Of a stretch of 64,000 nucleotides of DNA, positions 873 to 39,230 are shown piece by piece (position 1 is the first letter of the stretch; each line of letters begins with the position of its first letter). The notes under the pieces are model-generated. The model had not been told where the DNA came from. It did no database searches and saw nothing but the letters and a program-made list of their open reading frames with translations. A program made the translations under genes and the position numbers. The stretch spans positions 2,150 through 66,149 of the forward strand of contig JAJDNB010000037.1 of the NCBI GenBank assembly GCA_022340905.1, written 5' to 3'. This DNA comes from Deltaproteobacteria bacterium (GTDB taxonomy: Bacteria > Desulfobacterota > Syntrophobacteria > BM002).

Positions 873-1082
873 GCATGTATTCTCTGGCTTAGCCGGTTTA
901 GCCGGTTTAGCCGATTATGCTGGTTACGTTGGTTATGACTGCTTAGGCTAACGCACTCTATTCATAGGTGAGTCCCTAGTTACTATTTAGCGTCATATAT
1001 TCGTTTCTTCGTCTAGCTTATAAACTGGTCTGCCATCCGGCCAAGGTTAACAACCGCTTAAACTGACTAAACTGGCTAAACT
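873..1082. repeat. Family G palindromic region: ggtttagcc tandem units, inverted gctaaact units
   Basis: cttagccggtttagccggtttagccg ... cggttaaactgactaaactggctaaactg in the ACT-paaK intergenic gap. Confidence 0.4.
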
Positions 1083-1085
1083 GCA

Positions 1086-2387
1086 TTATATTTCTCTCTT
1101 GTCCATTACCCGAACAGCCTTACCCTCAGTCCTTTGAATGGATTTAGGCTCCACCAGTTTGACCTGCGCCGCAACTCCCAACATCTCTTTGATATTCTTT
1201 TCTAGACTTTGCTCCATAGCTTGCATATTCTTGACTTCATCAGAAAAGATTCTTTCATTCACCTCCACCATCACAGTAAGGGTGTCTAATCTTCCCTCCC
1301 TTTCCACTACCAACTGGTAGTGAGGCTCGATACCATCAAATTCCATGATGACGCTTTCGATTTGGGAGGGGAAAACATTGACACCACGGATTATCAGCAT
1401 GTCGTCACTTCGGCCTCGTACTCTCCCCATGCGCACCATGGTACGACCACAGCGGCAAGGTTCAGGATGAAGAATTGAAATGTCGCGGGTTCTGTAGCGA
1501 ATGACGGGGAAAGCCTCTTTGGTGATGGTGGTGAACACGAGCTCTCCAGGTGTGTTGTACGGCAAGACCTCTTCAGTGTCTGGATCGATGATTTCAGGAA
1601 TAAAATGGTCCTCAAAAATGTGCAAACCATTCTGCGCTTCAATACACTCCACGGAAACACCCGGTCCAATAATCTCGCTGAGACCATAGATGTCCATCGC
1701 TTTGAGGTTGAGCTTCTTCTCGATCTCCTCCCGCATCTGCTCGGACCAGGGCTCAGCGCCAAAAATGCCCGCCTTGAAATGGAGCTCGCGGAAATTGATA
1801 CCCATCTCCTCCGCCACTTCTCCAATCATTAAGGCGTAGGAGGGGGTGCAGGTCAAAATGGTAGGAGCGAAATCTTTCATTATCATCACTTGACGCTTGG
1901 TATTCCCCCCAGAGATGGGAATAACCGAAGCCCCCAGTTTTTCCGCTCCATAGTGGAAACCGAGACCGCCCGTAAAAAGACCGTAACCATAGGCATTATG
2001 AATCATATCTCCTTTGGTGGCTCCCCCTGCCATGAGAGTTCGTGCCATGAGTTCAGACCAGGTCTGGATGTCTCTGGCTGTGTAGCCCACAACGGTAGGC
2101 TTTCCTGTGGTACCGGAAGAGGCATGGATACGAACCACATTATCCATGGGCACGGTAAACATACCAAATGGATAGTTGTCACGAAGATTGTCTTTGTAGG
2201 TAAAAGGGAGTTTCCTTAAATCATCTAGCGAGCGTATATGGTCTGGTTTAAGCCCTGCCTCGTCAAAACGCTTCTGGTAAAATGGCACTGTGCTGTAGAC
2301 TCTTGCAACTACCGACTGCAGTCGTCTCAGTTGAATGGCTTCCAGAGCCTCCCTGGGCATGGTTTCATACTCTTCGTTGTAGATCAT
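1086..2387 (-). CDS. paaK: phenylacetate--CoA ligase (PaaK / coenzyme F390 synthetase family)
   Basis: 433 aa with PaaK family hallmarks ([30 protein letters not shown]-binding motif). Confidence 0.85.
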
Positions 2388-2465
2388 TTGACCTCCTCGT
2401 CAACAGCAATAATGACTCACTTGCTCCTGTTTTTATCAGACCGTCAAACCAAAGTATTAAACACC

Positions 2466-3455
2466 TCAGAAGGAGAATTTTAAAGACAGACTCAGGGTTG
2501 GCGCCCGGGGCTGATTCAAACTCTCCAGTTCGTAAGGGGCAAGCCTCTGTTGTTGTCTCCTCTCTTCTCGATCGTTGTACTTGTGAGCTACGTTTACGGC
2601 GCTATAAATGTTTCCTCCGTAAAAGGCCGCAGTGACTACCGCCAATGCCACTCCCACTCCATCGTGGCCCTGGTTGAAGGCCTCGTAGGTGGCATAAGCA
2701 AAAGCACCGGTGAACACAAGGGCTATGGTTCCGTCTCGAGGTCGCTCGCAATAAAAGTGGCCCGCCCCAGGGAGAATCGCTGCTAAAAATCCTGCCAGAG
2801 TGGGATTCTTCCCATGTGTTTGTGATTCCTCTGCCACGATTTTTTGCACTTCCATGGCTGACCAGTATCGGGAGTCGCCGCTACCCACCTGTCGCAACGC
2901 TTCATCAGCTTCCAACCAGCGGCCTTCTTTGGCATAACTCAGGCCAATGAGATACCAGGCCTCTGACTCCAATGGTCTACCAGGAAGGTCTGCAATGATG
3001 GAACGATACTCCTCTCTCGCCTTTTCGCCTTTTCCCATCTCCCCGAAGGAGCGAGCTTTGAGGAAACGCGCCTCCCATTTCAGTGAACTTTCGGGATATT
3101 CACGGAGAAAAGAGTCTGCAGCCTCCACTGCTCTTTGCCATCGGTTGCCTCGAAAGTAGCAGCGGACAATCTTAAGAGCAGCATTGGGGGCCTGCAAATC
3201 ATTAGGGTAGAGAAATAAAAAACGCTCATACTCACCAATTGCTCGGAAATACTCTTGTTGGGAAAAAAGGTAATCAGCAAAGTCCAGAATCTGTTGGGCA
3301 GGGAGGTCAAGAGGAGAGCTTGTTTTCTGGGCTTCAGCAGACATTGTCGAGGCTAAAATGAGCGTGAATACAATGGCAGCTAAAAACGAGCGGCTAAGGG
3401 AAGCAGAAGAGGTCTCGGGCCGGATAAACGCTTTATCAACAACTCGTTGTGGCAT
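2466..3455 (-). CDS. tetratricopeptide-repeat protein with signal peptide and C-terminal transmembrane segments
   Basis: 329 aa with an N-terminal signal-like segment, TPR-like helical repeats and C-terminal hydrophobic helices. Confidence 0.55.
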   Translation of the reverse strand: MPQRVVDKAFIRPETSSASLSRSFLAAIVFTLILASTMSAEAQKTSSPLDLPAQQILDFADYLFSQQEYFRAIGEYERFLFLYPNDLQAPNAALKIVRCYFRGNRWQRAVEAADSFLREYPESSLKWEARFLKARSFGEMGKGEKAREEYRSIIADLPGRPLESEAWYLIGLSYAKEGRWLEADEALRQVGSGDSRYWSAMEVQKIVAEESQTHGKNPTLAGFLAAILPGAGHFYCERPRDGTIALVFTGAFAYATYEAFNQGHDGVGVALAVVTAAFYGGNIYSAVNVAHKYNDREERRQQQRLAPYELESLNQPRAPTLSLSLKFSF

Positions 3456-3485
3456 TAGCAGGATACCAAATCTGACTGTTTAACT

Positions 3486-3566
3486 CAAAAAGCCGTGGAA
3501 ACCGCCTACCCCACGGCTTTAAAAACAAAAGCCATGGGCTCACTTTCCTGTCCGCCCATGGCTTAG
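3486..3566 (-). terminator. tandem rho-independent terminators downstream of the 3743..4459 gene
   Basis: On the minus strand: aagccatgggcggacaggaaagtgagcccatggctt + ttgttttt, then aaagccgtggggtaggcggtttccacggcttt + ttgagtt. Confidence 0.5.
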
Positions 3567-3742
3567 GTGCTCACCTCTGTACCGGCTTACCTCTTCAACC
3601 AAAGGGCAGACTTCTCAAAGAAGAAGCCGCCGGAGGGAAAGTCAGTTTGAAAGCCGGCAAACTGCATAGATTCCTCAGTTCCTATGGGGCGTTAAATTAT
3701 ATAAGTATTGGATACTTGTCAAGTTAATTCTTGACCTGCGAG

Positions 3743-4459: not shown

Positions 4460-4648
4460 ATGTTCTCCTCCTGATAACGCTTTTGGGGCGGGCAGTAACG
4501 ATTTCTGATTTTCGATTTGACTATAAGCTGGTTAGTTTGTCCATTCTAAAAAGTCTGCATTCTCCAATCTCAAATTTCCACTGACTGTCCGCTGCCTGCT
4601 TGCCCTGAGCCCGCTTGCTCTGAGCTTGTCGAATGGGTCGAAGGGCTG

Positions 4649-5311: not shown

Positions 5312-5334
5312 AGGTCACTCAAATCAATCAGATC

Positions 5335-5445
5335 ATTAAAGTCGTTCAAACCCTTGAAATCCTGAAAACCGTCTATCCCAGAGGTCAGAAGTCCGAGACC
5401 AGAAGTCGCTTTAACTCTGACCTCTGACCTCTGATCTCTGATTTC
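5335..5445. repeat. Family C palindromic repeat, copy C1 (gaggtcaga-type units)
   Basis: gtcgttcaaa...cgtctatcccagaggtcagaagtccgagaccagaagtc ... ctctgacctctgacctctgatctctgat. Confidence 0.7.
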
Positions 5446-5461
5446 CGCTAGCTGCTGTCTC

Positions 5462-5911: not shown

Positions 5912-6562
5912 TTAGTGCAGGTCATATTCGGCCTGTTCAAGCATCTGACGGAGTCGTCCCCGTTGTCTATTATATTCTTTTCCTAGCAGGATCTTACAAG
6001 TACTCGCCTTCAACTCCCTACTGACCACCCTGGCGGCAAATGCCATACAGGTGGTCTCGCCACACTCACCACAGTTGGTCCCTGGCAGTTCGCGGTAGAC
6101 AGTGAGAGGATCGAGTCTGGCATGTTTCCGCAGTGTTGGCGTAATGCTCTCCCGCTGCTTGTCTACCTGGTTAATCATATTCCTGAGCTCTTTGCACACT
6201 TGCCTGGCCTCTGCTTCGTCCGAAAGAGCGGTCACTGTGATTTGCCTGGATCGAATGGCAATTATGTGGCCCCCCTCCATGTAGTTGAGTTCCCCTGTGC
6301 CGTCGATGTAAGTGCATCCCCGAATAACTGTGGCAAGGTAAGGAAGTAAATGACCAATATCTACTTCAATGTCGACTATTGCATTGAACTTGGTCGAGGT
6401 GGGCATGCACTCAATGTTTACGAGTTTAAAATTAAGTTGATCAATGAGCATAGCTAAATCCCTTACAAACCAGCCAGGATATCTTACGACGGAACTTCGA
6501 AATCCCAAAGAAATAGAAAGCAGACGATCTGGGATGTGAGATGTGGGATAGGTGAAAATCAA
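5912..6562 (-). CDS. Fe-S cluster domain protein (CFeSP large-subunit N-terminal-type 4Fe-4S motif)
   Basis: C-terminal LPGTNCGECGETTCMAFAARVVSRE matches the Cys motif of the putative Fe-S cluster domain family (corrinoid Fe-S protein / RACo N-terminus). Confidence 0.5.
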   Translation of the reverse strand: MIFTYPTSHIPDRLLSISLGFRSSVVRYPGWFVRDLAMLIDQLNFKLVNIECMPTSTKFNAIVDIEVDIGHLLPYLATVIRGCTYIDGTGELNYMEGGHIIAIRSRQITVTALSDEAEARQVCKELRNMINQVDKQRESITPTLRKHARLDPLTVYRELPGTNCGECGETTCMAFAARVVSRELKASTCKILLGKEYNRQRGRLRQMLEQAEYDLH

Positions 6563-6605
6563 CGACGTCTTTCAGTATCTCATATCTCACATCACACATC
6601 TCGCG
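6515..6605. repeat. Family D palindromic repeat, copy D1 (gatgtgagat-type units)
   Basis: gatctgggatgtgagatgtgggata ... tatctcatatctcacatcacacatctcg. Confidence 0.65.
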
Positions 6606-7139: not shown

Positions 7140-7195
7140 ACAAGGTCGAACAACAAAGAATACAGCATAGCGCATGGAGCATAGCGCATGGCGAA
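7140..7195. repeat. Family F direct repeat (catagcgcatgg x2)
   Basis: cagcatagcgcatggagcatagcgcatggcg. It is related to the arms of the repeat at 21690-21910. Confidence 0.4.
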
Positions 7196-8274: not shown

Positions 8275-9051
8275 CTACCCTGTTTGTTTTAGCTGCGCAT
8301 CAACTACTAGGGGGAAGTGATCTGATGGATAGCGACCCCCTATTTGATCTCTCACGATGAGAACGTCTTCGATTATAAATTCGGGGGTTACCAAGATCCA
8401 GTCTATTCTGCCCTGAGCCGGTACTCCAGTAAAACCATGATGAGTGTAACTGCTATCATCTTCAGCTTTGTCAGCCAGCTGCCAGCTATCACCAAAGGGG
8501 CCCAAAGGCTTCCTCAAGGTTTTGTGCACCTCCGAGCCGGGGAGGTCATTAAAATCCCCTAACAAGATCACAGGCTCTTTCCTCTCAACCGCCCAGGCGC
8601 GAATCATTTTGGCCCCTTCAAGCCGTGCAGGGCCCGAGATGTGATCCAGGTGTGTCACTGAGGCCCAGATTCGCTTACCACTATCTTTCATTTCTAACAG
8701 ACTATGGCTAATCATCCGGGGAAAGGCCGAATCCCAACTTTTACTCATGTGTACTTCCGGTGTCTCTGATAGCCAAAATTCACTGTGTTTCACCACGGCA
8801 AAGTAATCCTTTAGATAATACAAAGTTGGATACTGGCAGTGATCGTCCCAAGCTCGCGAGTCCGCCGATATTTGATATCCTTTTAAATTATCCCTGAGGA
8901 ACATTAGCATCGAGGGCTTACCCTCCTGAGTTCCCAGCAGATGGGGGCGATATTGTTGAATTGTCTTCACCAGGAAATTACGGCGATTGAGCCAATGGTT
9001 TTCGCCGTCAAAATCATTTTCAAAACGGAGATTGAAGGTCATTACGCGCAA
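8275..9051 (-). CDS. endonuclease/exonuclease/phosphatase (EEP) family protein
   Basis: 258 aa. MTFNLRFEND...GTQEG...SDHFPLVV are EEP motifs. A TTG start with an AGGAGAG RBS directly abuts repeat B1. Confidence 0.75.
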   Translation of the reverse strand: MRVMTFNLRFENDFDGENHWLNRRNFLVKTIQQYRPHLLGTQEGKPSMLMFLRDNLKGYQISADSRAWDDHCQYPTLYYLKDYFAVVKHSEFWLSETPEVHMSKSWDSAFPRMISHSLLEMKDSGKRIWASVTHLDHISGPARLEGAKMIRAWAVERKEPVILLGDFNDLPGSEVHKTLRKPLGPFGDSWQLADKAEDDSSYTHHGFTGVPAQGRIDWILVTPEFIIEDVLIVRDQIGGRYPSDHFPLVVDAQLKQTG

Positions 9052-9066
9052 GAGAATCTCTCCTTT

Positions 9067-9250
9067 AACCCGGATATTTCATGAATTTCTGTTGCGAGAT
9101 CACGAAGATGGGCGTGCCACCTGGCAACCACAGGGTGTTGGTTCCGAGGCGTACCTGCATGGTACGTCGCAGGGACCGACACCCGAGGACGCCTGGAAGG
9201 ACGGCCATATCCGTGGTCGCAGCAAGTGATTCATGAAATATCCGGGTTAG
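9067..9250. mobile_element. Family B 185-bp MITE-like element, copy B1
   Basis: Termini cccggatatttcatgaat ... attcatgaaatatccggg. The whole element is an imperfect long hairpin. Flanks are ttaa / ttag. Confidence 0.75.
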
Positions 9251-10716: not shown

Positions 10717-11505
10717 TCATAATGAGCAGAAGTGGTCCCGGGCCGCATCAAACAACCTCATGAACTCCTCCATATCTTTTTTCGCAATTACTCTCTTTAG
10801 CTCCGAGATTATTCTCTCGAATTCCCGGAAAAATACTCCGTACGTCGAATTGAGCATTGGCATGGCCGCATAGAGGTCTGCATCCTGGTTGAGGAGATGG
10901 CTTATCTCCATCAGTCTCCTGTGGAATGCCGGAGTCGCAAAACGCTGTAGGCTCTTGGGGTCCATACCCAATGAATCTATTGTGAGTGCTAGAACGAGAG
11001 TGGTGAAGTGAGTAAGACCCTGCACCACCGCCATATAAAAGTCATGGACCTCTGGCGCAACCACCTCCACCTGGGCACCACTCTCCAACAAGACGGTGGT
11101 GAGCCAATCCAGCCATTCAGACCCTCGACCCGGACAAAGCACCACGGTTTGTCCAGTGATGTTGGGCTCGCCAGGGCCAAACAGCGGGTGAGTTCCTATC
11201 ACTGAGGATGAGGAAACCTCCAGCATCGTTCTCAGCACCTCGCTCTTGAGCGAGGCAATATCCATGAGTAAAGCATCATTCTTTACCAGATGTCCCATAC
11301 TGCGTACCACTTCTACCGTATGCTGCAAGGGAACCGCCACGAGCACTACATCACACTTTGGCGCCAAGTCTTGTGGCCTTATTTGGGTATCAAGATCAGC
11401 TACTGAGACCCTATACCCTAGCTCATCGAAATACCGATGAAACCAGCGGCCCATCTTACCATGGCCTCCAACAATGCCGATCTCTATGTTTTTTTCATGT
11501 GTCAT
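10717..11505 (-). CDS. tyrA: prephenate dehydrogenase
   Basis: NAD-binding IGIVGGHGKMG and TyrA-like body. The start is moved to the ATG at 11505 (MTHEK...) because the track M at 11532 is a TTG. Confidence 0.8.
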   Translation of the reverse strand: MTHEKNIEIGIVGGHGKMGRWFHRYFDELGYRVSVADLDTQIRPQDLAPKCDVVLVAVPLQHTVEVVRSMGHLVKNDALLMDIASLKSEVLRTMLEVSSSSVIGTHPLFGPGEPNITGQTVVLCPGRGSEWLDWLTTVLLESGAQVEVVAPEVHDFYMAVVQGLTHFTTLVLALTIDSLGMDPKSLQRFATPAFHRRLMEISHLLNQDADLYAAMPMLNSTYGVFFREFERIISELKRVIAKKDMEEFMRLFDAARDHFCSL

Positions 11506-11652
11506 CGATTGGAAGTCGTTCAAATCGTTCAAGTCGTATAAACCGCAAAAATCGTAAAACTATCGTAGAAGCCGTCTATCACAGAGGTCAGAAGTCGGAG
11601 ATCAGAGATCAGCTTTATGCCTGACCTCTGACATCTGATCTCTGACCTCTTG
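11505..11652. repeat. Family C palindromic repeat, copy C2
   Basis: gtcgttcaaatcgttcaagtcg...cgtctatcacagaggtcagaagtcggagatcagagatcag ... ctgacctctgacatctgatctctgacctct. Confidence 0.7.
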
Positions 11653-11688: not shown

Positions 11689-12945
11689 TTAGTGGTACAG
11701 CTGCTCAAAAATTTCCCAGAACTGGGGAAAGGATTTGGTCACACACGTCTCATTATCTATAAACACTCCCTCCGCCACTAACCCAGCGACAGCGAAACTC
11801 ATGGCAATGCGGTGATCATTATGGGAAGCAATCAAGGCTCCTCGGGGATTTCCACCTCTGATAGTCAGACGGTCTTCCTCCTCCTCAACCTGGACATTCA
11901 TTTTCTCTAGTCCTTCTGCGATTGCCCGAAGTCGATCGCTTTCCTTTATTCTCAAGTGGCCGACGTTAGTAATAGCCGTTGTGCCTTGGGCAAAGGCAGC
12001 GGCGACAGCCAGAGTCGGCACCATGTCAGGCATATTCTTCATATCCACCTCAATGGATCGAAGTTCTCCGCCAAATACGGTCACTCCGTGGTCATGCCAC
12101 TCAGCTCGACATCCCATCTGACACAGAATTTCCAGAAAAGCCAAATCTCCTTGCCGGCTGTCAGGAAGGATGTTTTGAGTCATTACCTTTCCCCCGGTGA
12201 TGGCAGCGGCTACCCAAAAATATGAGGCCGATGAGCAGTCTCCCTCCACATCGTAATGGCCCGCCTGGTAGCGTCCAGGTGCTTCCACCCGAAGATTATT
12301 CCCATCCAGCCAATGGGCCTTTGCACCAAATTTGGACATCCCTTCGAGGGTCACATCCACATAAGGCTTGGAAACCAGTCCCTGGACATTGATCTCAGTG
12401 GGCTGAGAAGCATAGGGCGCCACCAAGAGAATGGCAGAGACGAACTGACTCGATCGGCTCGCATTGACTGTGGTACTGCCACCTCTAATGCCGCTGCCCT
12501 GGATGCGTACAGGAGGATAGCCCCTTTCTTGTAGGCTTTCAACCACTCCTCCCAGGGGCTGCAGGGCGACCAGCAGTTCTTCTATGGGGCGCGTGTGTAG
12601 CCGTTCATTTCCGACAAGCACAGACGGTCCCTGGCTCAAACAGGCCACTGCAGTTAATAATCTCATGGAGGTGCCTGCATTTTCCAGATAAATAGGTTCC
12701 GACGGAGAATTTAAAACGCCGCCGGTGCCAATTACTTCTATTGCCTTAGGTGAATGTTTGATCTGTGCACCGAATCTTTCAAGGGCCTTTGCGGTGTAGC
12801 GCGTGTCATCGCACCAAAGTCCGTTGTGCAGCCAACTCCTCCCCTCGGCAAGGGCGGCCATAATGAGGTAGCGATGGGTAACGCTTTTCGAACCTGGAAC
12901 GGTTACATGTGCGTCAAGGGAATCAATGGTTTTTATCTGCTTCAT
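11689..12945 (-). CDS. aroA: 3-phosphoshikimate 1-carboxyvinyltransferase (EPSP synthase)
   Basis: 418 aa with EPSP synthase signatures (LPGSKSVTHR-like GSKSVTHRYL, full length). Confidence 0.9.
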   Translation of the reverse strand: MKQIKTIDSLDAHVTVPGSKSVTHRYLIMAALAEGRSWLHNGLWCDDTRYTAKALERFGAQIKHSPKAIEVIGTGGVLNSPSEPIYLENAGTSMRLLTAVACLSQGPSVLVGNERLHTRPIEELLVALQPLGGVVESLQERGYPPVRIQGSGIRGGSTTVNASRSSQFVSAILLVAPYASQPTEINVQGLVSKPYVDVTLEGMSKFGAKAHWLDGNNLRVEAPGRYQAGHYDVEGDCSSASYFWVAAAITGGKVMTQNILPDSRQGDLAFLEILCQMGCRAEWHDHGVTVFGGELRSIEVDMKNMPDMVPTLAVAAAFAQGTTAITNVGHLRIKESDRLRAIAEGLEKMNVQVEEEEDRLTIRGGNPRGALIASHNDHRIAMSFAVAGLVAEGVFIDNETCVTKSFPQFWEIFEQLYH

Positions 12946-12986: not shown

Positions 12987-13173
12987 CTAGCCCGGATATC
13001 TCATGAATCACCTGCTCCGACCGCGGATTTGGCCGTCCTTCCTGGCGTCCTTGGGTGTCGGCCCCTGCGACGTACCGTTCAGGTACGCCTCGGGACCTAC
13101 ACCCTGCGGTTGCAAGGTGGCACGCCCATCTTCGCGGTCTCGCGACAGCAATTCATAAAATAACCGGGCTAGG
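12987..13173. mobile_element. Family B MITE-like element, copy B2 (inverted relative to B1)
   Basis: ctagcccggatatctcatgaat ... attcataaaataaccgggctag. Its terminal CTAG provides the TAG stop of aroE (...AEEIP*). Confidence 0.75.
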
Positions 13174-13990
13174 GGATTTCCTCCGCGGTTGCCTCCTCGA
13201 GCGCCTTTCGCATAACTTCAACGGGCGCCACTTTGCCAGTCCAGAGTTCAAACTGGGCAACACCTTGGAAAAGAAGCATATCGAGTCCGGAAACGCATCT
13301 GCATCCAGCCTTCTCAGCATCTTTAAGAAGTCTTGTTTTAAGCGGTCGATATACCATGTCCAAAACCACCATCCCCTCCCGCAGCCAGTGGACTGGAACC
13401 GGACTCTGTTCCTCTGTGGGGGACATGCCCACCGTGGTAGCATTCACCACGAGATCCGTTCTGAGATGATCCCAAGCTTGCCATGGCACAAAAGTGCAGT
13501 TCATCTCAGCTGCGAGCTTCTGTCCACGGGCTTCGTTGCGATTCATGATAAAGACCTGGGTATCATTTCTTTGTAATCCATAAATAGCAGACCGAGCCGC
13601 ACCGCCGGCACCCACAATAAGGCCGCGTTTACCCCTAAGCTCGGTCATCTGTGACAATGGTTGAACAACTCCCAGCCAGTCTGTATTCGTCCCACACAAC
13701 CTACCCGCTCGGGACACGATTGTGTTCACCGCCCCAATAGTGCGCCCTATCTCATCCACCTCGTCCAGATGGGCTATGATTTTTTCTTTGTGAGGAACTG
13801 TAATGCTGGCTCCTCGAAAACCCAAATTTCTCATAGCGGATACAGCTTCCCCCGCTTCATCTACCCGAAAAGCCAGATAAGCGAGATTCAACCCTAGGTG
13901 AGAAAAGGCAGCGTTGTGCATCTGGGGACTCAGGCTGTGGGCAACTGGATTGCCAAAAATAGCCACGTATTCGGTCTGACCGTCGATCAT
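13169..13990 (-). CDS. aroE: shikimate dehydrogenase
   Basis: 273 aa with AroE motifs (GNPVAHSLSP, GAGGAARS NADP site). Confidence 0.85.
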   Translation of the reverse strand: MIDGQTEYVAIFGNPVAHSLSPQMHNAAFSHLGLNLAYLAFRVDEAGEAVSAMRNLGFRGASITVPHKEKIIAHLDEVDEIGRTIGAVNTIVSRAGRLCGTNTDWLGVVQPLSQMTELRGKRGLIVGAGGAARSAIYGLQRNDTQVFIMNRNEARGQKLAAEMNCTFVPWQAWDHLRTDLVVNATTVGMSPTEEQSPVPVHWLREGMVVLDMVYRPLKTRLLKDAEKAGCRCVSGLDMLLFQGVAQFELWTGKVAPVEVMRKALEEATAEEIP

Positions 13991-16791: not shown

Positions 16792-16974
16792 GCGCAACTC
16801 CTTTTCCCAGCACGGGTAAACCTGCCAATAGGTGTTTTAAAAGTCTATGCGTCTATCTAGGTCAATACAAGGGTAATCCACCACATTTACGGTATACATT
16901 CAATAAACAGACCATTTCTCCCACCATGTCCAAACCAAAGATAAAAAGGAGCAAGTTCATATCGTTGAAATAAA

Positions 16975-17010
16975 AAAGCCGCGGCTCGGGACTGCCGCGG
17001 CTTTCAGAAT
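16975..17010 (-). terminator. strong hairpin plus U-run (minus-strand sense)
   Basis: Minus strand reads gccgcggcagtcccgagccgcggc followed by ttttttatttc. No annotated minus-strand gene lies upstream of it, so it may be a small RNA or a stray terminator. Confidence 0.35.
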
Positions 17011-17342
17011 ATACATAGTAACTATCGGGTCAGCGCACAGCCCCCTCTATCGCCGTTATGGCGTAATAATAGCAAAAAAATGAGTAGGGCTGTGGTTTCA
17101 CTATTCCCCTTTAGCTTTATTTGTCACTGAGTCAAGTACGTTAGACTATACAGCGAGAAAAGTCAAGTTCCTTTTCGCTGTGGTTCTTGACATTTTCCCA
17201 TTCATTATGAGAAGTTAGCCTAGAGATTTTTTGAATGGCCCATTGCGCCCTAAGGCTCTGCCCTTCTAGGCCTGCCCCTCGAGCCAAGGCATGAAGCTTG
17301 CATCCGATTTCCAGCCGGCATATTGGATTGAGGAGAGCTACA

Positions 17343-17816
17343 ATGAGCGAGGACATTGTAAAGAGAGTGATAGCGAGAGTTGAAGAAATGTCACGAGGAG
17401 GTGAAGTATTCGAGGAAAAAGACCTAAAGGAATTCGCCATCACCATTCAACATCTTCTGAGCGAGCGGACCCGCAGAGAGGAAATTCTCGCCATAGCCGC
17501 CGCCGTACTAACCTTAGAAGAATACAAAAAAAGCCTTGAAAATAAAGTGGAGTATGCCAAGCTTGGTGGTCTCAAAGAGAGGGAGGCAACGCTGCTGGAG
17601 ATCTTGGACCAAATTGACAAAGAATTGGAAATGGCCGTTACCATGAAAATCCACGAACACACTTACCGAGAAAATATTGCCGATGAGCTCAAAACGGCAA
17701 TATTGGAGTATCTTGCGCCTACCTTGGGGCGAGGAAAGTGGCATGCCCGTGAACAGGAAGCTTTGATGCAAATTGTATCCAAGGCCTTGGAAGGATACTT
17801 GGTGGTCAAAGCCTAA
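17343..17816 (+). CDS. hypothetical protein (157 aa)
   Basis: ATG preceded by a GGAGAG RBS. It is the only plus-strand gene between the aro and trp operons. No family recognised. Confidence 0.5.
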   Translation: MSEDIVKRVIARVEEMSRGGEVFEEKDLKEFAITIQHLLSERTRREEILAIAAAVLTLEEYKKSLENKVEYAKLGGLKEREATLLEILDQIDKELEMAVTMKIHEHTYRENIADELKTAILEYLAPTLGRGKWHAREQEALMQIVSKALEGYLVVKA

Positions 17817-17861
17817 ATGGCATAAAATTTAGAGGTGTGCCTAAGTACCTTCTTGCCCTCT

Positions 17862-19851: not shown

Positions 19852-20019
19852 TCCTTAACCTTAGTGGTCGCCGGGATGAATTTTACCCACAGAGAACGTA
19901 ACGGGCACAGAAACATAATGTTTCTATGTCCAAATACTTACCTGCACTACTATCTATAGTACTCTGTGGTCTCTGTGTCCTCTGGAGTTCATTCGTCTTG
20001 TCCCGTAACCCGATAATCT

Positions 20020-20710: not shown

Positions 20711-20815
20711 ACCACAAAGAGCACCAAGGGCACAAAGAGAAAATAAAACTCAGATTAGCCTTGCGAGGAATTTTGACCAGAATAAACCCTTTGTGAGCTT
20801 TGTGGCCTTTGTGGT
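20711..20815. repeat. Family A palindromic repeat, copy A2, inside the trp operon
   Basis: accacaaagagcaccaagggcacaaagag ... ccctttgtgagctttgtggcctttgtggtg. Confidence 0.8.
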
Positions 20816-23017: not shown

Positions 23018-23103
23018 ACCACGAAGTTCACCAAGAGCACAAAGGAAAGAGCCTTACAATTTTTGGAACCCCTTTGTGTTCTTCGTGTGCTTTGCGGTTT
23101 AAC
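23018..23103. repeat. Family A palindromic repeat, copy A3, inside the trp operon
   Basis: ccacgaagttcaccaagagcacaaaggaaag ... cctttgtgttcttcgtgtgctttgcggttt. Confidence 0.75.
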
Positions 23104-23691: not shown

Positions 23692-23919
23692 GAGCAAATC
23701 CTCCTCAGCTGTCATGCTTAGCTTTGGCGTTCGTTTTTTCTTTGAGCGCGACTGCTTGTCCTAGTTCGAGACTCTATGGAGTGTTGGAGTGATGGAGTAT
23801 CGGAGTATTGAAAACAAATCTATGAAATTCAATATCGTGTCTAAGATCTCCCAGTACTCCACTGCTCCTTTACTCCATTACTCCGGTAGAAATGCACTTC
23901 GTCAGAAGTAAATTTCTAT

Positions 23920-25410: not shown

Positions 25411-25439
25411 TTCAATCGTAAGCTTGAAGTCAGCAGGGA

Positions 25440-25525
25440 AAAAGGCCGTGAGGCTTTTCAGCTCCCACGGCCTTTAATAAAAAAGAAAAAGCCGTGGGCA
25501 AGAAGTTTACCCACGGCTTTGAAGT
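25440..25525 (-). promoter_or_regulatory. trp attenuator: two tandem hairpins with U-runs between the leader peptide and trpE
   Basis: Minus strand: aaagccgtgggtaaacttcttgcccacggc + tttttctttttt, then aaaggccgtgggagctgaaaagcctcacggcc + tttttccc. Confidence 0.6.
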
Positions 25526-25537
25526 ACGAGTCGGATG

Positions 25538-25630
25538 CTACTCACCTGGCAGTGGACAAACTCCTCCACAGACGCACCACCACCAGTACCAGCTGACGAG
25601 AATATTCTGTTTCTTCAAGTTTTTCTTCAT
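25538..25630 (-). CDS. trpL: trp operon leader peptide (30 aa, MKKNLKKQNILVSWYWWWCVCGGVCPLPGE)
   Basis: The ATG has an AAGGAAAG RBS. Four Trp fall within five consecutive codons (tgg tac tgg tgg tgg), directly upstream of the terminator hairpins and trpE. Confidence 0.65.
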   Translation of the reverse strand: MKKNLKKQNILVSWYWWWCVCGGVCPLPGE

Positions 25631-25636
25631 AGCTTT

Positions 25637-25667
25637 CCTTACTTTGGACTTTAAAAAACAGTAGCAT
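25637..25667 (-). promoter_or_regulatory. candidate sigma70 promoter of the trp operon
   Basis: Minus strand shows TTGACA, an 18-nt spacer, then TAAAGT about 12 nt upstream of the leader ATG. Confidence 0.35.
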
Positions 25668-25848
25668 CCTTTGTCAAGAAAAAACTTTAAGGTCATCCCT
25701 CTCCCTTGGCTGCCTAAATTTTTTCATACGAATGTGCCTAATTAAATACTTCTTGTTGTTTCTCAGGGTAATTGCTTGACTCCTCTCCAGTTTTTCTATA
25801 AAAAATAAGCTCGTTTTCTGAGATCATTTACATCATCAGGAGTGGCCA

Positions 25849-25989
25849 TATGGCGAAACATAAAAAGATCGAAAGAAAAAGAGAGCTAGACAGACGGCGA
25901 AGGAGACGAAAGAAGAGATTAAAACTGCGAGCAAAAGGTCTGCTACCGCCTGTGGAGGAGTCTAAGGACAAAACCGCCCCCAAAGATTA
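25849..25989 (+). CDS. small highly basic protein (46 aa, MAKHKKIERKRELDRRRRRRKKRLKLRAKGLLPPVEESKDKTAPKD)
   Basis: AGGAG RBS 7 nt upstream of the ATG. It is divergent from the trp promoter and below the 60-aa ORF-track cutoff. Confidence 0.4.
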
Positions 25990-26193
25990 ATCTTGGTGAT
26001 AAACGCATTTTCTGCCCCCAAACGTACCTACCCTCAACAAGAATAATAAGTATGTTAGGTACAGGAGACAGCTGACAGATACCTACTGCCCTCCCCAGCA
26101 CGCACCCTTTATCCAGCACTTTCTGCCTCCTCATCTAATCTGGCATTGTAATTGCATATTTAGCAAGGCGAAATATCAGGCCAGGAGACTGTC

Positions 26194-29349: not shown

Positions 29350-29599
29350 CGTTGGCAAACTCCTTGCTTTTCATTGTACAAGCCAAGCAGAAACAATACC
29401 TTCATTTATTATACCGTAACTTGTTTAGCAACTCCTATGCCATATGTTCCACCTCTAATGTGCTAAAGAGATTTTCTTTCATCTCCCGGTTCAAAATCTG
29501 CTCAGGGTATTCCACCAAACGGTAGCTGCGCCAGTGAACGCAATTGTCCCCCCGTCCCCGAGATCTAGCCTGCAGTATCCCGCTATTCGTGCAGTTTCT

Positions 29600-29710
29600 T
29601 GCAAGAGCCGAGCGACATTAATTAATGTTAATTATTAACTTATTATAAAAAAACATAATTATTAACTATTGTTATCAATAATATAGAATGCCATGAACTC
29701 CACCTTAAGC
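29600..29710. promoter_or_regulatory. AT-rich (about 12% GC) block with palindromes gttaattattaac and ataattattaac
   Basis: cgacattaattaatgttaattattaacttattataaaaaaacataattattaactattgttatcaataatatag. Function is unknown. Confidence 0.3.
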
Positions 29711-29815
29711 TGATTGCATTGAGTGAGTTGCGCAGTGTGAGAGTGTCACCGATTCAGGCCACGACTAATCGTTAGCCCTTCTCTTTTCCTTCTCTTTTCC
29801 TTTGGCAGGTAACGC

Positions 29816-32101: not shown

Positions 32102-32183
32102 GTTGCTGCAGGTTAATACCAAAATGTGCGGATTCATGCAGCTTCCCCTTTGGTGCACAATTAGTACGGATGTAAGCTGCTGA

Positions 32184-32435
32184 TTACTCTGAAGCTTGGT
32201 CGTTCGATTTGACGATTTTTTCGGTTGCCTCTGCCAGGGCCACAAATGCCCTGATCACATCAAAATGCTGCATTATCAATTTTATCTGGTGTTCCACTAG
32301 TTCGTTTTTGCTCATTTTTTCCAGTTCAGCCTTTATCTCCTCAGGTTTTAATTCCTGCTGACTAATTTTTTTAAGCTCAGGTAGTATCTGTTCAAACGCA
32401 CGCAAAGTGGTCATTGGGTCGCCGGTTTGGCCCAT
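32184..32435 (-). CDS. hypothetical small protein
   Basis: 83 aa ORF followed upstream by a 760-bp ORF-free region. Confidence 0.3.
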   Translation of the reverse strand: MGQTGDPMTTLRAFEQILPELKKISQQELKPEEIKAELEKMSKNELVEHQIKLIMQHFDVIRAFVALAEATEKIVKSNDQASE

Positions 32436-33199
32436 TTTCAGCTCCTCTCTTATTCAATCTCGACTCCCGTTAACTTGCCTTTCGAGATTTTCCTTTCATC
32501 TTTAGCTCTCATGCATATGACGGCGATGAGACAAATCATTTTAGGATTTACTCGGCCCTAGTAATTTCCTACGCACTGAGAATAATACCCTGAGGAACTC
32601 TATTTCACAGAAGAAGTGAAGAGTCTTACCCCGTAGAGGCCGGCTATCCGTAGACAAACCCTTCACGCTATTCTTACTCGTATGATCCCCTGCGTCTCCG
32701 CTTATTCAAGCGTCTCAATGCTTTCTGGTTCTTAAGCCTGCTTCTCTCACCCTTACTCAAATGGTAGCGATGTCTTTTGATAGAAGGCCCGACGTTTCTC
32801 TGAAAGTCTTTTTTGAGCCGCTTCAGCCGTTGCTCAAAACTACTCAACTCTCGCCGCCTCTCTCTGTAGTAAATGTCTAGTAAAAACCTAAAATATCAGA
32901 CTCAATGTGAGGTAATCTGGGTAAGTCAAGAAGTGGAAGCATTCCATAAAAGTGCTAGGCAGAGGTGATGTAATGCCAATTCTGTCTGCACTCTTTGGCC
33001 TTAAAAGTTAGACAAAATATTTTAGATACACTCTTAAAGGAAATCCTTCCACACAATCTATGACTGCACTGGCCGTATTTCGATGGTGACCATAGCAGCA
33101 TTTCCTTTGATAATCAACTGGCAATCTATTTCAGAAGTTTCCCTAAAAAATCTTGGCAAAATAGGCCACGAAGAAGTTCTTGACTATCTGTTCAACCAC

Positions 33200-35095: not shown

Positions 35096-35108
35096 GCTCT
35101 CAACTTTT

Positions 35109-35599: not shown

Positions 35600-36565
35600 C
35601 TAGCCAAAGGGAATTTCTTTGGACAGTGCAGATGGCTCAGGTTTTACGAATCCGTAAAAGAGGGCCTCGGTCACAGTGTCCATTTCATCCACCAAGGAGT
35701 AATCGGTTTCGCTTGCCAACCACTTTTGCATCACACCATCGATAAAACCCATTACTCCATAGAAAACCGTATGAAAATCCATTTGCTTTAAGTGACCTTT
35801 TCGAGCTGCGAGGAAAATCTTTCGCTTCAGCAACGGCACCCTCTTAAGAATATTGCCAATATAGAGGGCTTTAACCTCCGCACCAAAATCGCTCTGCTCC
35901 TGAATAAGGACTTTATAAAGATCTCGGTTATGGTCAAAGAAGGAGAAGTATGTTCTCAGATACGTCTCAATAATATCCAGTACATCAGCATGAGGATCAA
36001 TGGCTCCCTGCACCCTCTCCTCCAGCTCGGCAACCTTCAAGCGGATAAGCTCGGAAAACAACCCTTTTTTGCTATGAAAGTGGCGGTATACCGTTCCCTT
36101 CCCTAGGGCAGCACTCTCCGCAATCTCATCTACCGTAGTTCCATGAAAGCCCTTGGCGGAAAAAACCTCCAGGGCTGCTGCCAGAATCTTATCCCGGGTA
36201 TCTGCTGTCTGCGGTCTAACCGGATCTCTCTGTCCAAATCTTTTAGAGAACTGGCGGGTAAGAAGACGTTCGCTAAATTTAGTCTGATCCACTCCCCAGC
36301 TCTTAGCAACCCTAATAATCTCCCGCACCCAAGTGGAGATGGAATCTTCCACCTCACTGTTGGTTGAAATAATTTCAGAAACCCCTTCTTCAAAAATCGA
36401 AATCAGGGTCTCCATGTCTTGTCCATTGCCCGTGGTTGCCTCAACCAGGGTGTTTTGCCAAAATAGGTGCCAAGCATCTGGATCCGCTGCCGCACCCCGC
36501 GAGAGCAGATCCAAAAGCTCAGCCCGCTTGTTTTTATCAAAATTTCTTCCTACATAACTTGACAT
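35600..36565 (-). CDS. TetR/AcrR family transcriptional regulator with an about 120-aa N-terminal extension
   Basis: The TetR HTH (ILAAALEVFSAKGFHGTTVDEIAESAALGKGTVYRHF) begins at about residue 125. Confidence 0.7.
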   Translation of the reverse strand: MSSYVGRNFDKNKRAELLDLLSRGAAADPDAWHLFWQNTLVEATTGNGQDMETLISIFEEGVSEIISTNSEVEDSISTWVREIIRVAKSWGVDQTKFSERLLTRQFSKRFGQRDPVRPQTADTRDKILAAALEVFSAKGFHGTTVDEIAESAALGKGTVYRHFHSKKGLFSELIRLKVAELEERVQGAIDPHADVLDIIETYLRTYFSFFDHNRDLYKVLIQEQSDFGAEVKALYIGNILKRVPLLKRKIFLAARKGHLKQMDFHTVFYGVMGFIDGVMQKWLASETDYSLVDEMDTVTEALFYGFVKPEPSALSKEIPFG

Positions 36566-36664
36566 GATCGAAACCTGAAAATATTGTGACTGACCAGTCC
36601 GTCATTATCTCTAATTAATCGTAAGTGTCAAGTTCTTTTTACAGAAGATCAAGGAAACACACAA

Positions 36665-36850
36665 TAAATCCTAAATCCGAATATCGATCCGCCGTAGGCG
36701 GACTAAACAAATCAATCTGGATGTGAGATCTGAGATCTGAGATGTGGGATAATGAATACCGATGGAAGTCTTGAATCTCACATCCCATATCGCACATCCC
36801 ACATCCGTAGGTGAAGATCTGTTTCGTGCTTAGGATTTAGGATCTTGAAT
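36665..36850. repeat. Family D palindromic repeat, copy D2, nested with an outer inverted repeat
   Basis: Outer aatcctaaatcc / ggatttaggat. Inner atctggatgtgagatctgagatctgagatgtgggata ... tctcacatcccatatcgcacatcccacatccg. Confidence 0.65.
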
Positions 36851-36881
36851 TTAGTGGTGGCTAAGCTCATTCTGTAGGTAG

Positions 36882-37355
36882 TTATCTTGGGATGGTTTGC
36901 TTGATTCTATAGATGGGGGGTGAGCCGCCGTGTAAACGCTGGTAAGCCCTATGGATCACTTCTCTGGTCTCCTTTGTAAGTGTGTATTCGTCCAGAGCGG
37001 AGAAAGGTACCTGAGCACAAGAAATAGCATCACTACTGGCCTGCAATTTACCTCCCCTTTTACGACAGAGAAAGTCTAACAGTACATAATGGAACTGGAC
37101 CTGGCCCTCCCTGTCCAAAAAAATCCTATCCAATGTCGCAACTAACTCCAACACCTCAACTTCGAGTCCAATTTCTTCCCTAACCTCTCGTATAACAGCC
37201 TTTTCGAGCGTCTCTCCGAGTTCCACCACCCCTCCGGGTAGCGACCATTCTCCATAGGCTGGCGGTCTACCTCGGCGCACCAGTGCGATCCGGTCATTCT
37301 CTATGAGAATCGCAGCCACCCCAATTATTGGCCGTTCTGGGTAATCCCTCGGCAT
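36882..37355 (-). CDS. NUDIX hydrolase
   Basis: Nudix box [24 protein letters not shown]. Confidence 0.8.
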
Positions 37356-37434
37356 GGCTAGCTACTTTCCATTGCAAGCATTCAGAACTTGTCGTCTCAA
37401 CCAAAGAGCACGAGAGCAGAGTGGTTGCCAATCA

Positions 37435-37535
37435 CTCGATGTGTGATCTGAGATGTGGGATGTGGGATTGAAAAACCTAGTCCAGACTTTGTCACATCTC
37501 ATATCGCATATCCCGCATCCGATTCCTAAATCGGT
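37435..37535. repeat. Family D palindromic repeat, copy D3
   Basis: cgatgtgtgatctgagatgtgggatgtgggattg ... cacatctcatatcgcatatcccgcatccg. Confidence 0.65.
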
Positions 37536-37580
37536 TTCGCGCTCGGGCGGTATAATCGCCCTCCTTGTGTTGACTCGATC

Positions 37581-38216
37581 TTAGGGTTTACATCGGCGCC
37601 CCGGGCTAAAACCTTGGTACAAAGCTTCATAACGGCTTTCAAAAATAACTCGGTTATGACCTGCGGTCTGAAGGCCAAACTGGCAATGAGGTCGATGGAA
37701 TACCCAACTCCGTTTGTTCCCCAGGTAAAACTTTTCGGGTTTGGCAACAGGTAGCGACCAGATACCCTTCTTCTCTTTCAAGGCCCGACGTTGCAGATTC
37801 AGCATTCTTTGCCAGTAGCGTACCCTTGACTGGCCACGCATGAGATGCGCATAGCCCTGGTGAATCAGTTCACCATTGACGAATGTACCATCTTCAAGAA
37901 AAACATAAGCCAGCAGCCGACCATAGTGGTCGCGTGACTCCTCTGCCAACTCGAGGGTCAGCCAATGGCCCATTACCAACTTCCGGTTGAATGTTCGGGC
38001 CTCATCACCAAAGGGCTCGCCGGGTTCATCATCGTGAACTACTTCAGGAGCATTTATGCCAGCATAGCGCAGCCTTTCACCACCCATGAGAACTACTGTG
38101 TCACCATCAACCACCCAGCGCACTTGGGCACATTTTTCAGCCCCATACACTACCGAGGCGGCCAGGATGCAGGCTATTGAAATAAGATGGAGTGTAAGTG
38201 TAAGGCGCTTGAACAT
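37581..38216 (-). CDS. thermonuclease (staphylococcal nuclease-like) family protein, secreted
   Basis: Signal peptide followed by an SNase-like core (VVDGDTV...RLLAYV). Confidence 0.65.
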   Translation of the reverse strand: MFKRLTLTLHLISIACILAASVVYGAEKCAQVRWVVDGDTVVLMGGERLRYAGINAPEVVHDDEPGEPFGDEARTFNRKLVMGHWLTLELAEESRDHYGRLLAYVFLEDGTFVNGELIHQGYAHLMRGQSRVRYWQRMLNLQRRALKEKKGIWSLPVAKPEKFYLGNKRSWVFHRPHCQFGLQTAGHNRVIFESRYEALYQGFSPGRRCKP

Positions 38217-38224
38217 ATTTAATC

Positions 38225-38300
38225 CAGTTTTCAGGTGTCAGGTTTCGGGTTTCAGATGTGAGGAAAAAAGAATCTGAAACCTTAACACTGAAACCTTATT
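38225..38300. repeat. Family E palindromic repeat, copy E1 (ggtttcag units)
   Basis: ttttcaggtgtcaggtttcgggtttcag ... tctgaaaccttaacactgaaacctt. Confidence 0.55.
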
Positions 38301-38302
38301 AT

Positions 38303-39004
38303 TTACCCGCGTCGGTGGCCACAGCGACGATCCACTTCTGCCATCATCTCGTTGAGTCGATCTTGAACCAGCTGTCTGTACCTTTCCAGAGCCTGACCTG
38401 AGCTGTCAGCAGGAACATAGATGGGCTCACCAAAGGCTATGCAGACCTTGCTCCAGGGAAGAGGAAGCATAGTCTTGTCCCAACTATCCCTGATGGTTAT
38501 TACGCGGTTGCCTGACCAGATAAGGGGAATGAGTGGCGCACCGCTGAGTTTGGCTAGGTGGATCATACCTTTCTTCGCAACGTAGGCTGGCCCTCTGGGA
38601 CCATCGAGGACCGTCGCACATCTCTTTCCTCCCCTCACCATATAGGCTCTCATTTGCTCCAAAGCATCTCGCCCGCCCTTGTGCGAAGAACCGCGGGCAG
38701 GAACAACACCAAAGCCAGCGGCGTATTGGGTTAGCATTTCCCCGTCTTTACTCTGGCTTATCATTATCATGGGACGAAGGTCACCAAAAAAATAAAGAAA
38801 GTAGATGGACGCCCGATGCCAGGTGCCGGCAACGATAGGCCTGTCTGTAAGGAAGTACTCACGGTAGATCCGTTCATTGACCATTGTCACCCGGCAGGTG
38901 CTAAACCATAGACGTACAACTGGAACCAAAATCTTCCGGATAAGACGGCTGACAAAGGTGTCGTGAGCAAAATCTCGAACTCGAAATGTTCTTCTTCCAC
39001 CCAA
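38303..39004 (-). CDS. DUF374 / lysophospholipid acyltransferase-like protein
   Basis: 233 aa. Its length and conserved blocks are consistent with the DUF374 family. Confidence 0.5.
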   Translation of the reverse strand: MGGRRTFRVRDFAHDTFVSRLIRKILVPVVRLWFSTCRVTMVNERIYREYFLTDRPIVAGTWHRASIYFLYFFGDLRPMIMISQSKDGEMLTQYAAGFGVVPARGSSHKGGRDALEQMRAYMVRGGKRCATVLDGPRGPAYVAKKGMIHLAKLSGAPLIPLIWSGNRVITIRDSWDKTMLPLPWSKVCIAFGEPIYVPADSSGQALERYRQLVQDRLNEMMAEVDRRCGHRRG

Positions 39005-39049
39005 TGATCGCCACCGTTACCTGATGCCTAACCCAACGAATCTGATAGC

Positions 39050-39230
39050 CAGTAATCCAAATCCAAAATTCCAAACCTCAAACACCCAATTACGAGGTTT
39101 TAGGTTTCAGTGCTCAGGTTTCAGGTTTTTCTTTTTGTTCTTCTTTTGCTGACGCCTGAAACCTGACACCAGAAACCTAAATACTCAAGTCCACAATCTG
39201 CAGTCTGCAATCCAAAATCTTCAATCTAAT
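39050..39230. repeat. Family E palindromic repeat, copy E2, plus flanking aatccaaaat direct repeats
   Basis: gaggttttaggtttcagtgctcaggtttcagg ... gcctgaaacctgacaccagaaacc, followed by caatctgcagtctgcaatcc. Confidence 0.55.

Follow-up and report, generated by a model that had tools for sequence, protein, structure and literature searches.

Over up to 35 years, palindromes built of tandem units have come up incidentally in work on Geobacter, Xanthomonas and cyanobacteria. In Geobacter metallireducens, 24, 21 and 8 pairs of sites (classes 1-3) lie on opposite strands at a variable distance and are made of units written as 4 x GTTGCTYN, 3 x TCTCCGTS[Y] and 5 x MTYCTGA; one pair sits in the proB/proA gap, G. 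sulfurreducens lacks the sites, and the authors read them as sites of an IHF/HU-type regulator (Aklujkar et al. 2009, PMC2700814). Xanthomonas genomes each hold 70-75 convergent, intergenic pairs of GGGAATC heptamer arrays; among close species these vary in length and sequence but mostly not in type (single or inverted pair), and 83% of the sites are conserved from one species to another (Rehm et al. 2015, PMC4692102). For the cyanobacterial short tandemly repeated repetitive (STRR) heptamers, hairpins between hupS and hupL are present in filamentous species and have been proposed to act in transcript stability or translational coupling (PMC2670836), and an excess of heptanucleotide repeats in some bacteria was reportedly noted by Mrazek et al. 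2007. Here we describe 24 intergenic elements of the same design in a window of 64 kilobases (kb), by which we mean the whole stretch analysed, from a Deltaproteobacteria bacterium (Syntrophobacteria, BM002; contig JAJDNB010000037.1, positions 2,150 to 66,149). The original prediction, which drew attention to these repeats, knew of no described element class of this design; the reports above show that the design had been described.

We read the elements, tentatively and with slightly less than even confidence, as lineage-amplified, dispersed tandem-unit palindromes that resemble repetitive extragenic palindromic (REP) sequences and bacterial interspersed mosaic elements (BIMEs): modules spread, units slip, and a trans-acting protein probably reads the unit cores. 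Features not described before are the density of the elements, the number of co-existing families, their nesting, the replacement of one family by another at orthologous sites of very close relatives, and the analysis of cores and spacers. The nearest public relatives of the host are uncultured Deltaproteobacteria/Syntrophobacteria metagenome-assembled genomes. Four loci (L001-L004) are syntenic with the window between its positions 2.3 and 23.5 kb and 75-90% identical in aligned, mainly coding, segments, whereas L085-L089 are short metagenome contigs of much closer relatives (TrpD 94-97% and a SNase-family nuclease 97% identical to the window). A metagenome scan with the oxaloacetate decarboxylase gene returned distant relatives only (at most 78% identity), which served as negative controls and not as orthologues.

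Comparison with described systems

With the G. metallireducens sites the window arrays share their build of 3-5 tandem units of 7-9 nucleotides (nt), their arrangement as opposite-strand pairs at variable distance, and the presence of several unrelated classes in intergenic positions, including positions within operons. Units like the MTYCTGA class of G. metallireducens are also present in relatives of the window (L001 1717-1862 and L086). The two systems differ in unit sequences and in host, which here belongs to another order of the former Deltaproteobacteria. Documented here, but not for the G. metallireducens sites, are nesting, the replacement of elements at orthologous sites and polymorphism by unit slippage. 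The turnover described below would not favour the IHF/HU-type reading of those sites and would argue against gene-specific regulation. Compared with Xanthomonas, which has one G-rich, quadruplex-forming family and much lower site turnover, the window has many families, none of them prone to form quadruplexes. The STRR sequences resemble our elements in having several unrelated heptamer families per genome, in intergenic position and in forming paired hairpins between cistrons. They are, however, often long and unpaired, whereas the arms here are short, nearly always paired and built from 8- and 9-nt units as well; moreover, the present host is not a cyanobacterium, its units are unlike canonical STRR1-3, and HIP1 does not occur in the window.

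REP sequences, BIMEs and REP doublets forming hairpins (REPINs) are likewise short extragenic palindromes in transcribed spacers and operons, with several families, mosaic or nested copies and sites that vary from strain to strain, and as in REPINs an inverted doublet is here the dispersed extragenic unit, present in many copies (12 of family A in 64 kb, with homology over whole modules). A REP arm, however, is an imperfect palindrome of 20-40 nt with 5' GTAG, and our elements fail the REP definition because they lack GTAG and their arms are non-palindromic tandem arrays. REP arms are read by the REP-associated tyrosine transposase (RAYT), and the window has no transposase-like open reading frame (ORF). 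Unlike miniature transposable elements with inverted repeats (MITEs), family A copies are not flanked by a duplicated target and no related insertion sequence (IS) was found; a true MITE family in the same window looks different. Intrinsic terminators differ in that no U-tract follows our hairpins and elements stand within the trp operon. Slippage microsatellites (unit 5-11 nt) share the gain and loss of whole units, but dispersal to many loci and inverted pairing exceed that class. Ribbon-helix-helix proteins bind heptad or octad arrays with one dimer per unit, as at the omega heptads of pSM19035, the 8-base-pair (bp) metboxes of MetJ and the tetramer boxes of ParG with their 4-bp spacers. 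Such arrays are like the elements here in their tandem 7-8 bp units, direct and inverted, with a conserved core and a free spacer; they are unlike them in that they stand at the promoters or partition sites of a single operon or plasmid instead of being scattered over hundreds of intergenic sites, and in that they do not turn over between close relatives.

Detection and anatomy of the elements

Elements were identified with Tandem Repeats Finder, an inverted-repeat search and direct reading, and the final set was curated by hand. Tandem Repeats Finder reported about 40 short arrays with a period of 7, 8 or 9 nt in the window, and the inverted-repeat search paired most of them across loops of 8-170 nt. 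A purpose-built detector, which looks for a tandem array with a reverse-complement partner within 260 nt by local ungapped scoring, reported 15 elements for the window and none for 10 Markov shuffles; earlier versions were dropped as too strict or as flooded by codon-periodic arrays, and the final one overlooks weaker elements (38233, 44974, 50631, 58282) and degenerate ones in L139 and L140. It yields 2.3 elements per 10 kb for the window, against 1.0 for L001-L004, 0.29 for relatives further away and 0.14 for 797 kb of loci from unrelated bacteria, where the hits are mostly low-complexity false positives. The family A pattern was matched by 21 arms in the window (at most 3 mismatches) and by none in 100 dinucleotide shuffles, ten elements gave RNA fold z-scores of -3.6 to -8.2, and in a Rfam scan of the whole 64 kb on both strands no family reached its gathering score.

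The general plan is an arm of 2-7 tandem units of 7, 8 or 9 nt, a variable loop, and then the inverted units; at least nine unit families follow it. Family A has the consensus (NNCACAAAG)x3 ... (CTTTGTGNN)x3, that is, AC-CACAAAG-NN-CACAAAG-NN-CACAAAG, a loop of 24-110 nt and a mirror image ending in GT, and nine of its 12 copies are of the 3+3 type, the other three being partial or degenerate. Heptamers make up families C, D, E, F, AGATTNT and AAATCCT, beside which there are 8- and 9-nt families. Tandem Repeats Finder counts 2.4-3.4 units per array for 9-mers, about 4.2 for 8-mers and 3.3-4.9 (once 6.7) for 7-mers, and the length of an arm is roughly constant at 25-34 nt whatever the unit length (one array has 47 nt). 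Elements can be nested, with an AGATTNT hairpin in a family A loop (53882-54026) and a family D hairpin within AAATCCT arms (36668-36850); many arrays show a super-period of two units (14 or 16 nt), and perfect recent duplications are present. A rule that the 5' arm is purine-rich was dropped as inconsistent across families.

Read against the original prediction, direct reading of the sequence confirmed hairpins in all but two of its ranges, 7140-7195 (family F) and 52995-53075 (family D), which hold solo arrays without an inverted partner. Its central idea, unlike unit sequences under one syntax, is borne out by the shared plan, and the families are truly dispersed rather than chance palindromes. 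The contrary outcome that it had considered, chance palindromes of variable unit number without family structure, agrees with the data in that unit numbers vary and disagrees in that the family structure is real. The six families that it listed exist, yet the list was incomplete, lacking family H, AGATTNT, AAATCCT and one more family A copy (23018-23098). A unit number of always three applies to the 9-mers only, since 8-mers have about four and 7-mers about three to seven, and the family C units, taken there for 9-mers, are heptamers (GARRTCA).

We also noticed direct 9-mer arrays (approximately ACGATTTGA / GTCGTTCAA) that have no inverted partner, at 5335-5372 and 11516-11560 of the window and at L001 17882-18087. 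They are placed between a family C hairpin and the next start codon, with no obvious Shine-Dalgarno sequence, a placement that resembles that of the TAACTGA repeats which in Beggiatoaceae stand immediately upstream of start codons (PMC4679880). An unrelated bacterium (L021 4350-4432; OadA 49% identical) has a near-perfect case built in this way from another unit: (GACAGGATT)x3, then a short loop, then (AATCCTGTN)x4. In L086 (2665-2720) a family F array (GGCATAGAGCAT...GGGCATGGAG) is broken by an unrelated insert of about 23 nt (CCTTCGACAAGCTCAGGACAGGT), which brings to mind the very small insertions within heptamer arrays that have reportedly been seen in Nostoc.

Conserved cores, free spacers and fixed polarity

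When the two arms of a family A element are compared, they match at 192 of 207 sites of the seven-position core, whereas the dinucleotide spacers are Watson-Crick complementary at just 3 of 36 positions, below the approximately 8 expected from arms of different elements. Only 2 of 17 core deviations in this family are matched in the partner arm, and no classic covariation was seen. With all families taken together, mirrored positions hold units that are only slightly more alike than those at other positions (identity of 0.771 vs 0.743, p = 0.018; 13/19 elements). The sense RNA is the more stable strand in 7 of 20 elements, which is no significant bias (Wilcoxon p = 0.18). All 11 family A pairs are convergent, with the CACAAAG arm followed by the CTTTGTG arm, and none is divergent or direct. 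Uncompensated core changes, mismatched spacers, the lack of strand bias and the fixed polarity together lead to the conclusion that the element is a unit with a defined dyad in which the core of the unit, and not base pairing, is preserved.

Location relative to genes

All 24 elements are intergenic; of the 47 gaps that measure 60 nt or more, they occupy 22. Co-directional genes flank 19 of these 22 gaps, and an element usually starts 2-91 nt past the upstream stop codon. The trp operon has four, in the gaps trpE/trpG, trpG/trpD, trpD/trpC and trpC/trpF (families H, A, F and A), and a degenerate fifth at trpF/trpB. A run of at least four T within 12 nt downstream was found in none of 22 hairpin/strand combinations, and the hairpins are therefore not canonical intrinsic terminators. 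Readings of the chromosomal copies as integron attC sites, CRISPR arrays, iteron origins or terminators were ruled out by context (core syntenic genes, no U-tracts and no cassette structure).

Turnover, slippage and dispersal

The original prediction had proposed a comparison of orthologous intergenic sites in related genomes, and this revealed presence, absence and replacement of families. At the site downstream of aroA, family C of the window gives way to family F in L002 and L003 and to a CATTTCN family in L001 and L004; the build is the same in all. Between trpD and trpC, an F composite occurs in the window and L085, a 3+3 family A element in L087 and L088, and GATGACA and TYCTGA arrays in L086 (as in L001), giving three different states although the TrpD proteins are 94-97% identical. 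The trpE/trpG gap holds family H in the window and an AGATTNT hairpin in L086 and L140, whereas family A at trpC/trpF is found in the window alone. In the gap between the NUDIX and TetR genes, the nested D element is missing from L090, and the adjacent TetR promoter and operator are conserved. Other elements persist: the E element at 38233 is kept orthologously in L090, and the trpG/trpD family A element has the same flanks in the window, L085 and L086.

Slippage, one of the processes suggested in the original prediction, does operate. The F composites at trpD/trpC of the window and L085 are identical at 289 of 306 positions and differ by four internal indels of 7, 14, 7 and 7 nt, of which two 7-nt indels affect both complementary F arms (3+3 vs 4+4). 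At trpG/trpD the family A element has 3+3 units in the window but 2+2 in L085 and L086, where an AGATTNT hairpin is nested in it. These two cases are a hint that arm lengths change together, and are too few for proof.

Homology between separate sites extends beyond the units. Two family C copies (11569-11645 and the 5335 composite) are 86% identical over 77 nt, including the loop and 5' flank, and are followed by the same kind of 9-mer array; the family A copies at 58282 and 62707 (62707-62796) are 81% identical over 90 nt, loop and spacers included. The composite of family A around AGATTNT aligns over its full length, including the loop, at three non-orthologous places: tatD/maf in the window, trpG/trpD in L085, L086, L001 and L087, and a nitrilase/dnaJ gap in L004.

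The same design in phage contigs

Exact matching of (CACAAAGNN)x3 across 2.9 million viral contigs (IMG/VR) gave 47 stretches. Ten viral loci have convergent pairs and one a divergent pair, in contigs with a G+C content from 35% to 66%, and the design (NNCACAAAG)x3-4 ... (CTTTGTGNN)x3-4 is itself present in these phage contigs. In a low-G+C group (35-39%), TTCACAAAG x4 is followed by a conserved loop of about 65 nt and the inverted units (coordinates in Table 1), and in L101 and L105 this element directly adjoins the gene for a protein of about 785 amino acids that has primase-polymerase/DUF3987 matches. This position is the usual one for origin iterons, and the element has the look of an iteron set of a replication origin. 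The copy at L107 8165-8260 (54% G+C) has exactly the anatomy of family A, AAC-(CACAAAG)x3, a 7-nt loop and (CTCTGTG)x3-GTT, and lies between two co-directional genes beside a Mu Gam-like gene; its left arm is all of the A subtype and its right arm all of the G subtype, so that one strand has three A.C mismatches and the other has three G.T pairs. No protein family is common to all phage contigs with CACAAAG arrays; only one group of related phages clusters.

One phage contig of 63% G+C, L094, contains five CACAAAG/CACGAAG nonamer arrays in 13.5 kb (at 3637, 4211, 6437, 11872-11966 and 13455-13541). In the high-G+C group to which it belongs (L094, L096, L115, L117 and L122, with portal and Mu F-like genes), arrays are paired or solo and have conserved flanks that contain ACGGC.

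Possible explanations

In the favoured reading, that of REP/BIME-like dispersed palindromes, the elements would form a population of modules that has lasted for a long time and whose propagation or retention depends on the cores alone. Whole modules, for which homology and site turnover are observed, would have been inserted into untranslated, transcribed spacers; copies with intact cores would stay able to spread, so that cores are conserved while spacers and loops drift. Whole-unit slippage is the main local mutation. Since a core of 5-7 nt is conserved, the other two positions are free and the stem shows no compensation, what is preserved is most likely not pairing but the recognition of that core by a protein acting in trans, whether a mobilising enzyme or a binding protein that forms multimers. 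Young insertions have the same cores with different spacers, and therefore neither a single recent master copy nor local slippage alone can explain the family. The effect on the host is probably that of a generic untranslated stem-loop in the transcript, or of a cruciform-prone DNA site, rather than gene-specific regulation. The original prediction had thought of proteins that each recognise their own unit; the conserved cores and free spacers fit a unit-reading protein, but no trans-acting candidate was found in the window. Several further points also weigh against this reading. No transposase, RAYT or integrase is among the ORFs scanned in the 64-kb window, which are all housekeeping, and seven or more families would need several recognition proteins or one very tolerant one. 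At the compared sites, the flanks of which are too diverged, there is nothing convincing in the way of a target-site duplication or a clean empty-versus-filled site. From one family A copy to another the loops are for the most part unrelated, an outcome that simple copy-and-paste predicts only if the copies are old or their loops were exchanged by recombination, and ectopic recombination between arms could yield part of the pattern. Copy numbers beyond the window are extrapolations, as this genome was sampled as one 64-kb window and its relatives as short pieces.

If the arrays instead act at the DNA level, as sites of nucleoid-associated or "global regulator" proteins with one dimer per 7-9 bp unit, inverted arrays that bridge or loop and an incidental hairpin, then conserved cores, free spacers and a fixed register are expected, the lack of compensation and of sense-strand bias fits a double-stranded target, and iteron-type binding would be natural for the identical paired CACAAAG arrays beside phage primase-polymerase/DUF3987 replication genes. 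Aklujkar et al. 2009 (PMC2700814) put forward the same idea for G. metallireducens. We regard it as unlikely here: sites are unconserved at orthologous positions even between such close relatives, they follow stop codons and lie in operons instead of at promoters, at least nine unrelated families in 64 kb would require many such proteins, independent binding arrays need neither convergent polarity nor balanced arm lengths, and periods of 7, 8 and 9 bp share no helical phasing. Selection at each site for a cis-acting RNA (intercistronic or 3'-untranslated stem-loops for exonuclease protection, processing or translational coupling) appears less likely still. Protection at the RNA level is established for some REP elements, and the strongly stable predicted folds and the position shortly after stop codons, between co-directional genes and in the trp operon, where read-through is expected without a U-tract, all speak for such a role, as does the proposal in the literature for the hupS-hupL hairpins (PMC2670836). 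Against it stand the sense RNA, which is not more stable than the antisense, the uncompensated cores and mismatched spacers, and the relatives that have no element or another family at the same site, so that no site-specific need is visible.

The elements could also be a purely mutational by-product without any trans factor, in which slippage microsatellites combine with template switching at quasi-palindromes and persist as neutral sequence in spacers. Indels of whole units only, perfect recent duplications, the super-period in many arrays, the two cases in which both arms changed together (F 3+3 vs 4+4, A 3+3 vs 2+2) and the slight excess of shared unit variants at mirrored positions agree with this, and the documented heptanucleotide excess in bacteria has been attributed to slippage. 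Slippage, however, cannot account for a shared 7-nt core at 12 or more separate loci, nor for a whole 145-nt composite at non-orthologous sites of different genomes, and it leaves both the invariant polarity and the 93%-conserved cores beside random spacers unexplained; we rate this account as improbable. Since the same design occurs in phage contigs, a wider class of protein-read elements may exist. It is doubtful, although conceivable, that each family is the cis partner of its own trans-acting protein, which would recognise cores of 5-7 nt at a fixed register of 7-9 nt, in a hairpin or a single strand, and would mobilise the whole module; the elements would then be a class of non-autonomous mobile elements apart from REPIN/RAYT systems and MITEs and reaching beyond this lineage.

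With about half of its intergenic gaps filled, many families, and differences between genomes in which a neighbouring protein is 94-97% identical, the lineage is a good system in which insertion, replacement and unit slippage could be followed directly in metagenomic populations, and the pattern of conserved core and free spacer is a concrete bait for finding the protein involved.

Features of the window

Table 1. Repeat elements of the 64-kb window (window coordinates) and, in the last line, the low-G+C phage element
Position	Family	Structure	Location	Fold z-score	Remarks
299..388	A	3+3 units of 9 nt, 36-nt loop		-7.35	RNA fold -43 kcal/mol
884..1083	G	9-mer GGTTTAGCC array, 3 perfect then decaying units; ~130-nt loop; inverted TAAACTGNC x3			array 889-913: 2.8 copies, 100% match (Tandem Repeats Finder)
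5335..5441	C, composite	heptamer hairpin GARRTCA x4 at 5379-5441; adjacent 9-mer direct array	direct array just upstream of next gene's start
6526..6600	D	heptamer GATGTGR x4, 25-nt loop, inverted		-3.8
7160..7191	F, solo array	AGCATAGCGCATGG x2, perfect 14-mer (two heptamers); no inverted partner
11516..11650	C, composite	heptamer hairpin 11583-11650; 9-mer direct array 11516-11537	downstream of aroA	-6.2
19884..19988	A, degenerate	CACAGAG subtype; left arm down to one unit	trpF/trpB		not present in L001 (gap there 32 nt)
20711..20815	A	3+3	trpC/trpF		no counterpart at orthologous site of L001 and L087
21690..21905	F, composite	AGCATGG-type arms around further arrays (TTTCGGA) and ~170 nt	trpD/trpC
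23018..23098	A	3+3	trpG/trpD	-4.1
23777..23884	H	8-mer GGAGTAAT x4, 40-nt loop, inverted x4	trpE/trpG	-4.6
36668..36850	AAATCCT and D, nested	AAATCCT outer arms around family D hairpin 36715-36806
37438..37512	D				identical in L089, different sequence in L090
38233..38296	E	heptamer AGGTTTC x4, 14-nt loop, inverted		-4.5	orthologously conserved in L090/L091
39094..39186	E	unit variants at mirrored positions of the two arms		-5.8	flanked by direct AATCCAA/CAATCTG heptamer arrays at 39050-39080 and 39194-39227
42378..42467	A	3+3
44974..45053	A	3+3
45721..45820	A	CACAGAG subtype; G variant in 5/6 units
50631..50708	A	3+3
51807..51905	A, partial	left arm 1 unit, right arm 3
53037..53075	D-like, solo array	no inverted partner
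53882..54026	A and AGATTNT, composite	family A outer arms (2+3) around AGATTNT heptamer hairpin ~53903-53990		-8.2
58282..58368	A	3+3
62707..62793	A	3+3	between convergent genes	-6.0
L099 5850-6040; L101 2495-2700; L105 8820-9020; L136 315-520	low-G+C phage element

The window has a G+C content of about 49%, a steadily negative GC skew and genes mostly on the minus strand. These are ordinary core genes, among them paaK, aroA, tyrA-like, trpEGDCFBA, oadA/pycB-like, coaBC, ugd, purC, tatD, maf, gmk and lptF/G. Four gaps of 0.5-1.1 kb (16798-17861, 32102-33199, 25411-26193 and 29359-29815) have no accepted ORF, no repeat elements and no Rfam match. About 500 nt are extra in L001 (14394-14909, against 8279-8299 of the window) and contain a small ORF with an apparent signal peptide; the two genes that flank this insert are separated by just 20 nt in the window. 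Among the contigs of the closest relatives, which are only 1-3.5 kb long, both ends of L088 and the 5' end of L089 fall within repeat elements. This is expected of multi-copy repeats and suggests that the repeats break up short-read assemblies of the lineage.

A separate, classical MITE family of about 185 bp is represented by four copies in the window (9066-9249, 12987-13172, 41272-41457 and 57174-57359), with terminal inverted repeats of 21-26 bp (CTAGCCCGGATATTTCATGAAT), 134-142 bp between them and a strong fold. From the CTAG/TAA ends an IS5-type origin may be supposed, which is only a guess. The copies at 9066 and 12987 are missing at the orthologous sites of L001-L004, where the gaps measure just 13-80 nt.

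In practical terms, the palindromic repeats can be mistaken for terminators, small RNAs or regulatory sites, and they inflate naive ORF calls at gene starts. The longest-ORF starts of genes 5912-6562, 10717-11532, 49388-50671 and 53041-53916 reach into repeats (for example, the TTG at 6562 lies within family D and the start at 50671 within family A), and the true starts of these four genes probably lie further downstream.

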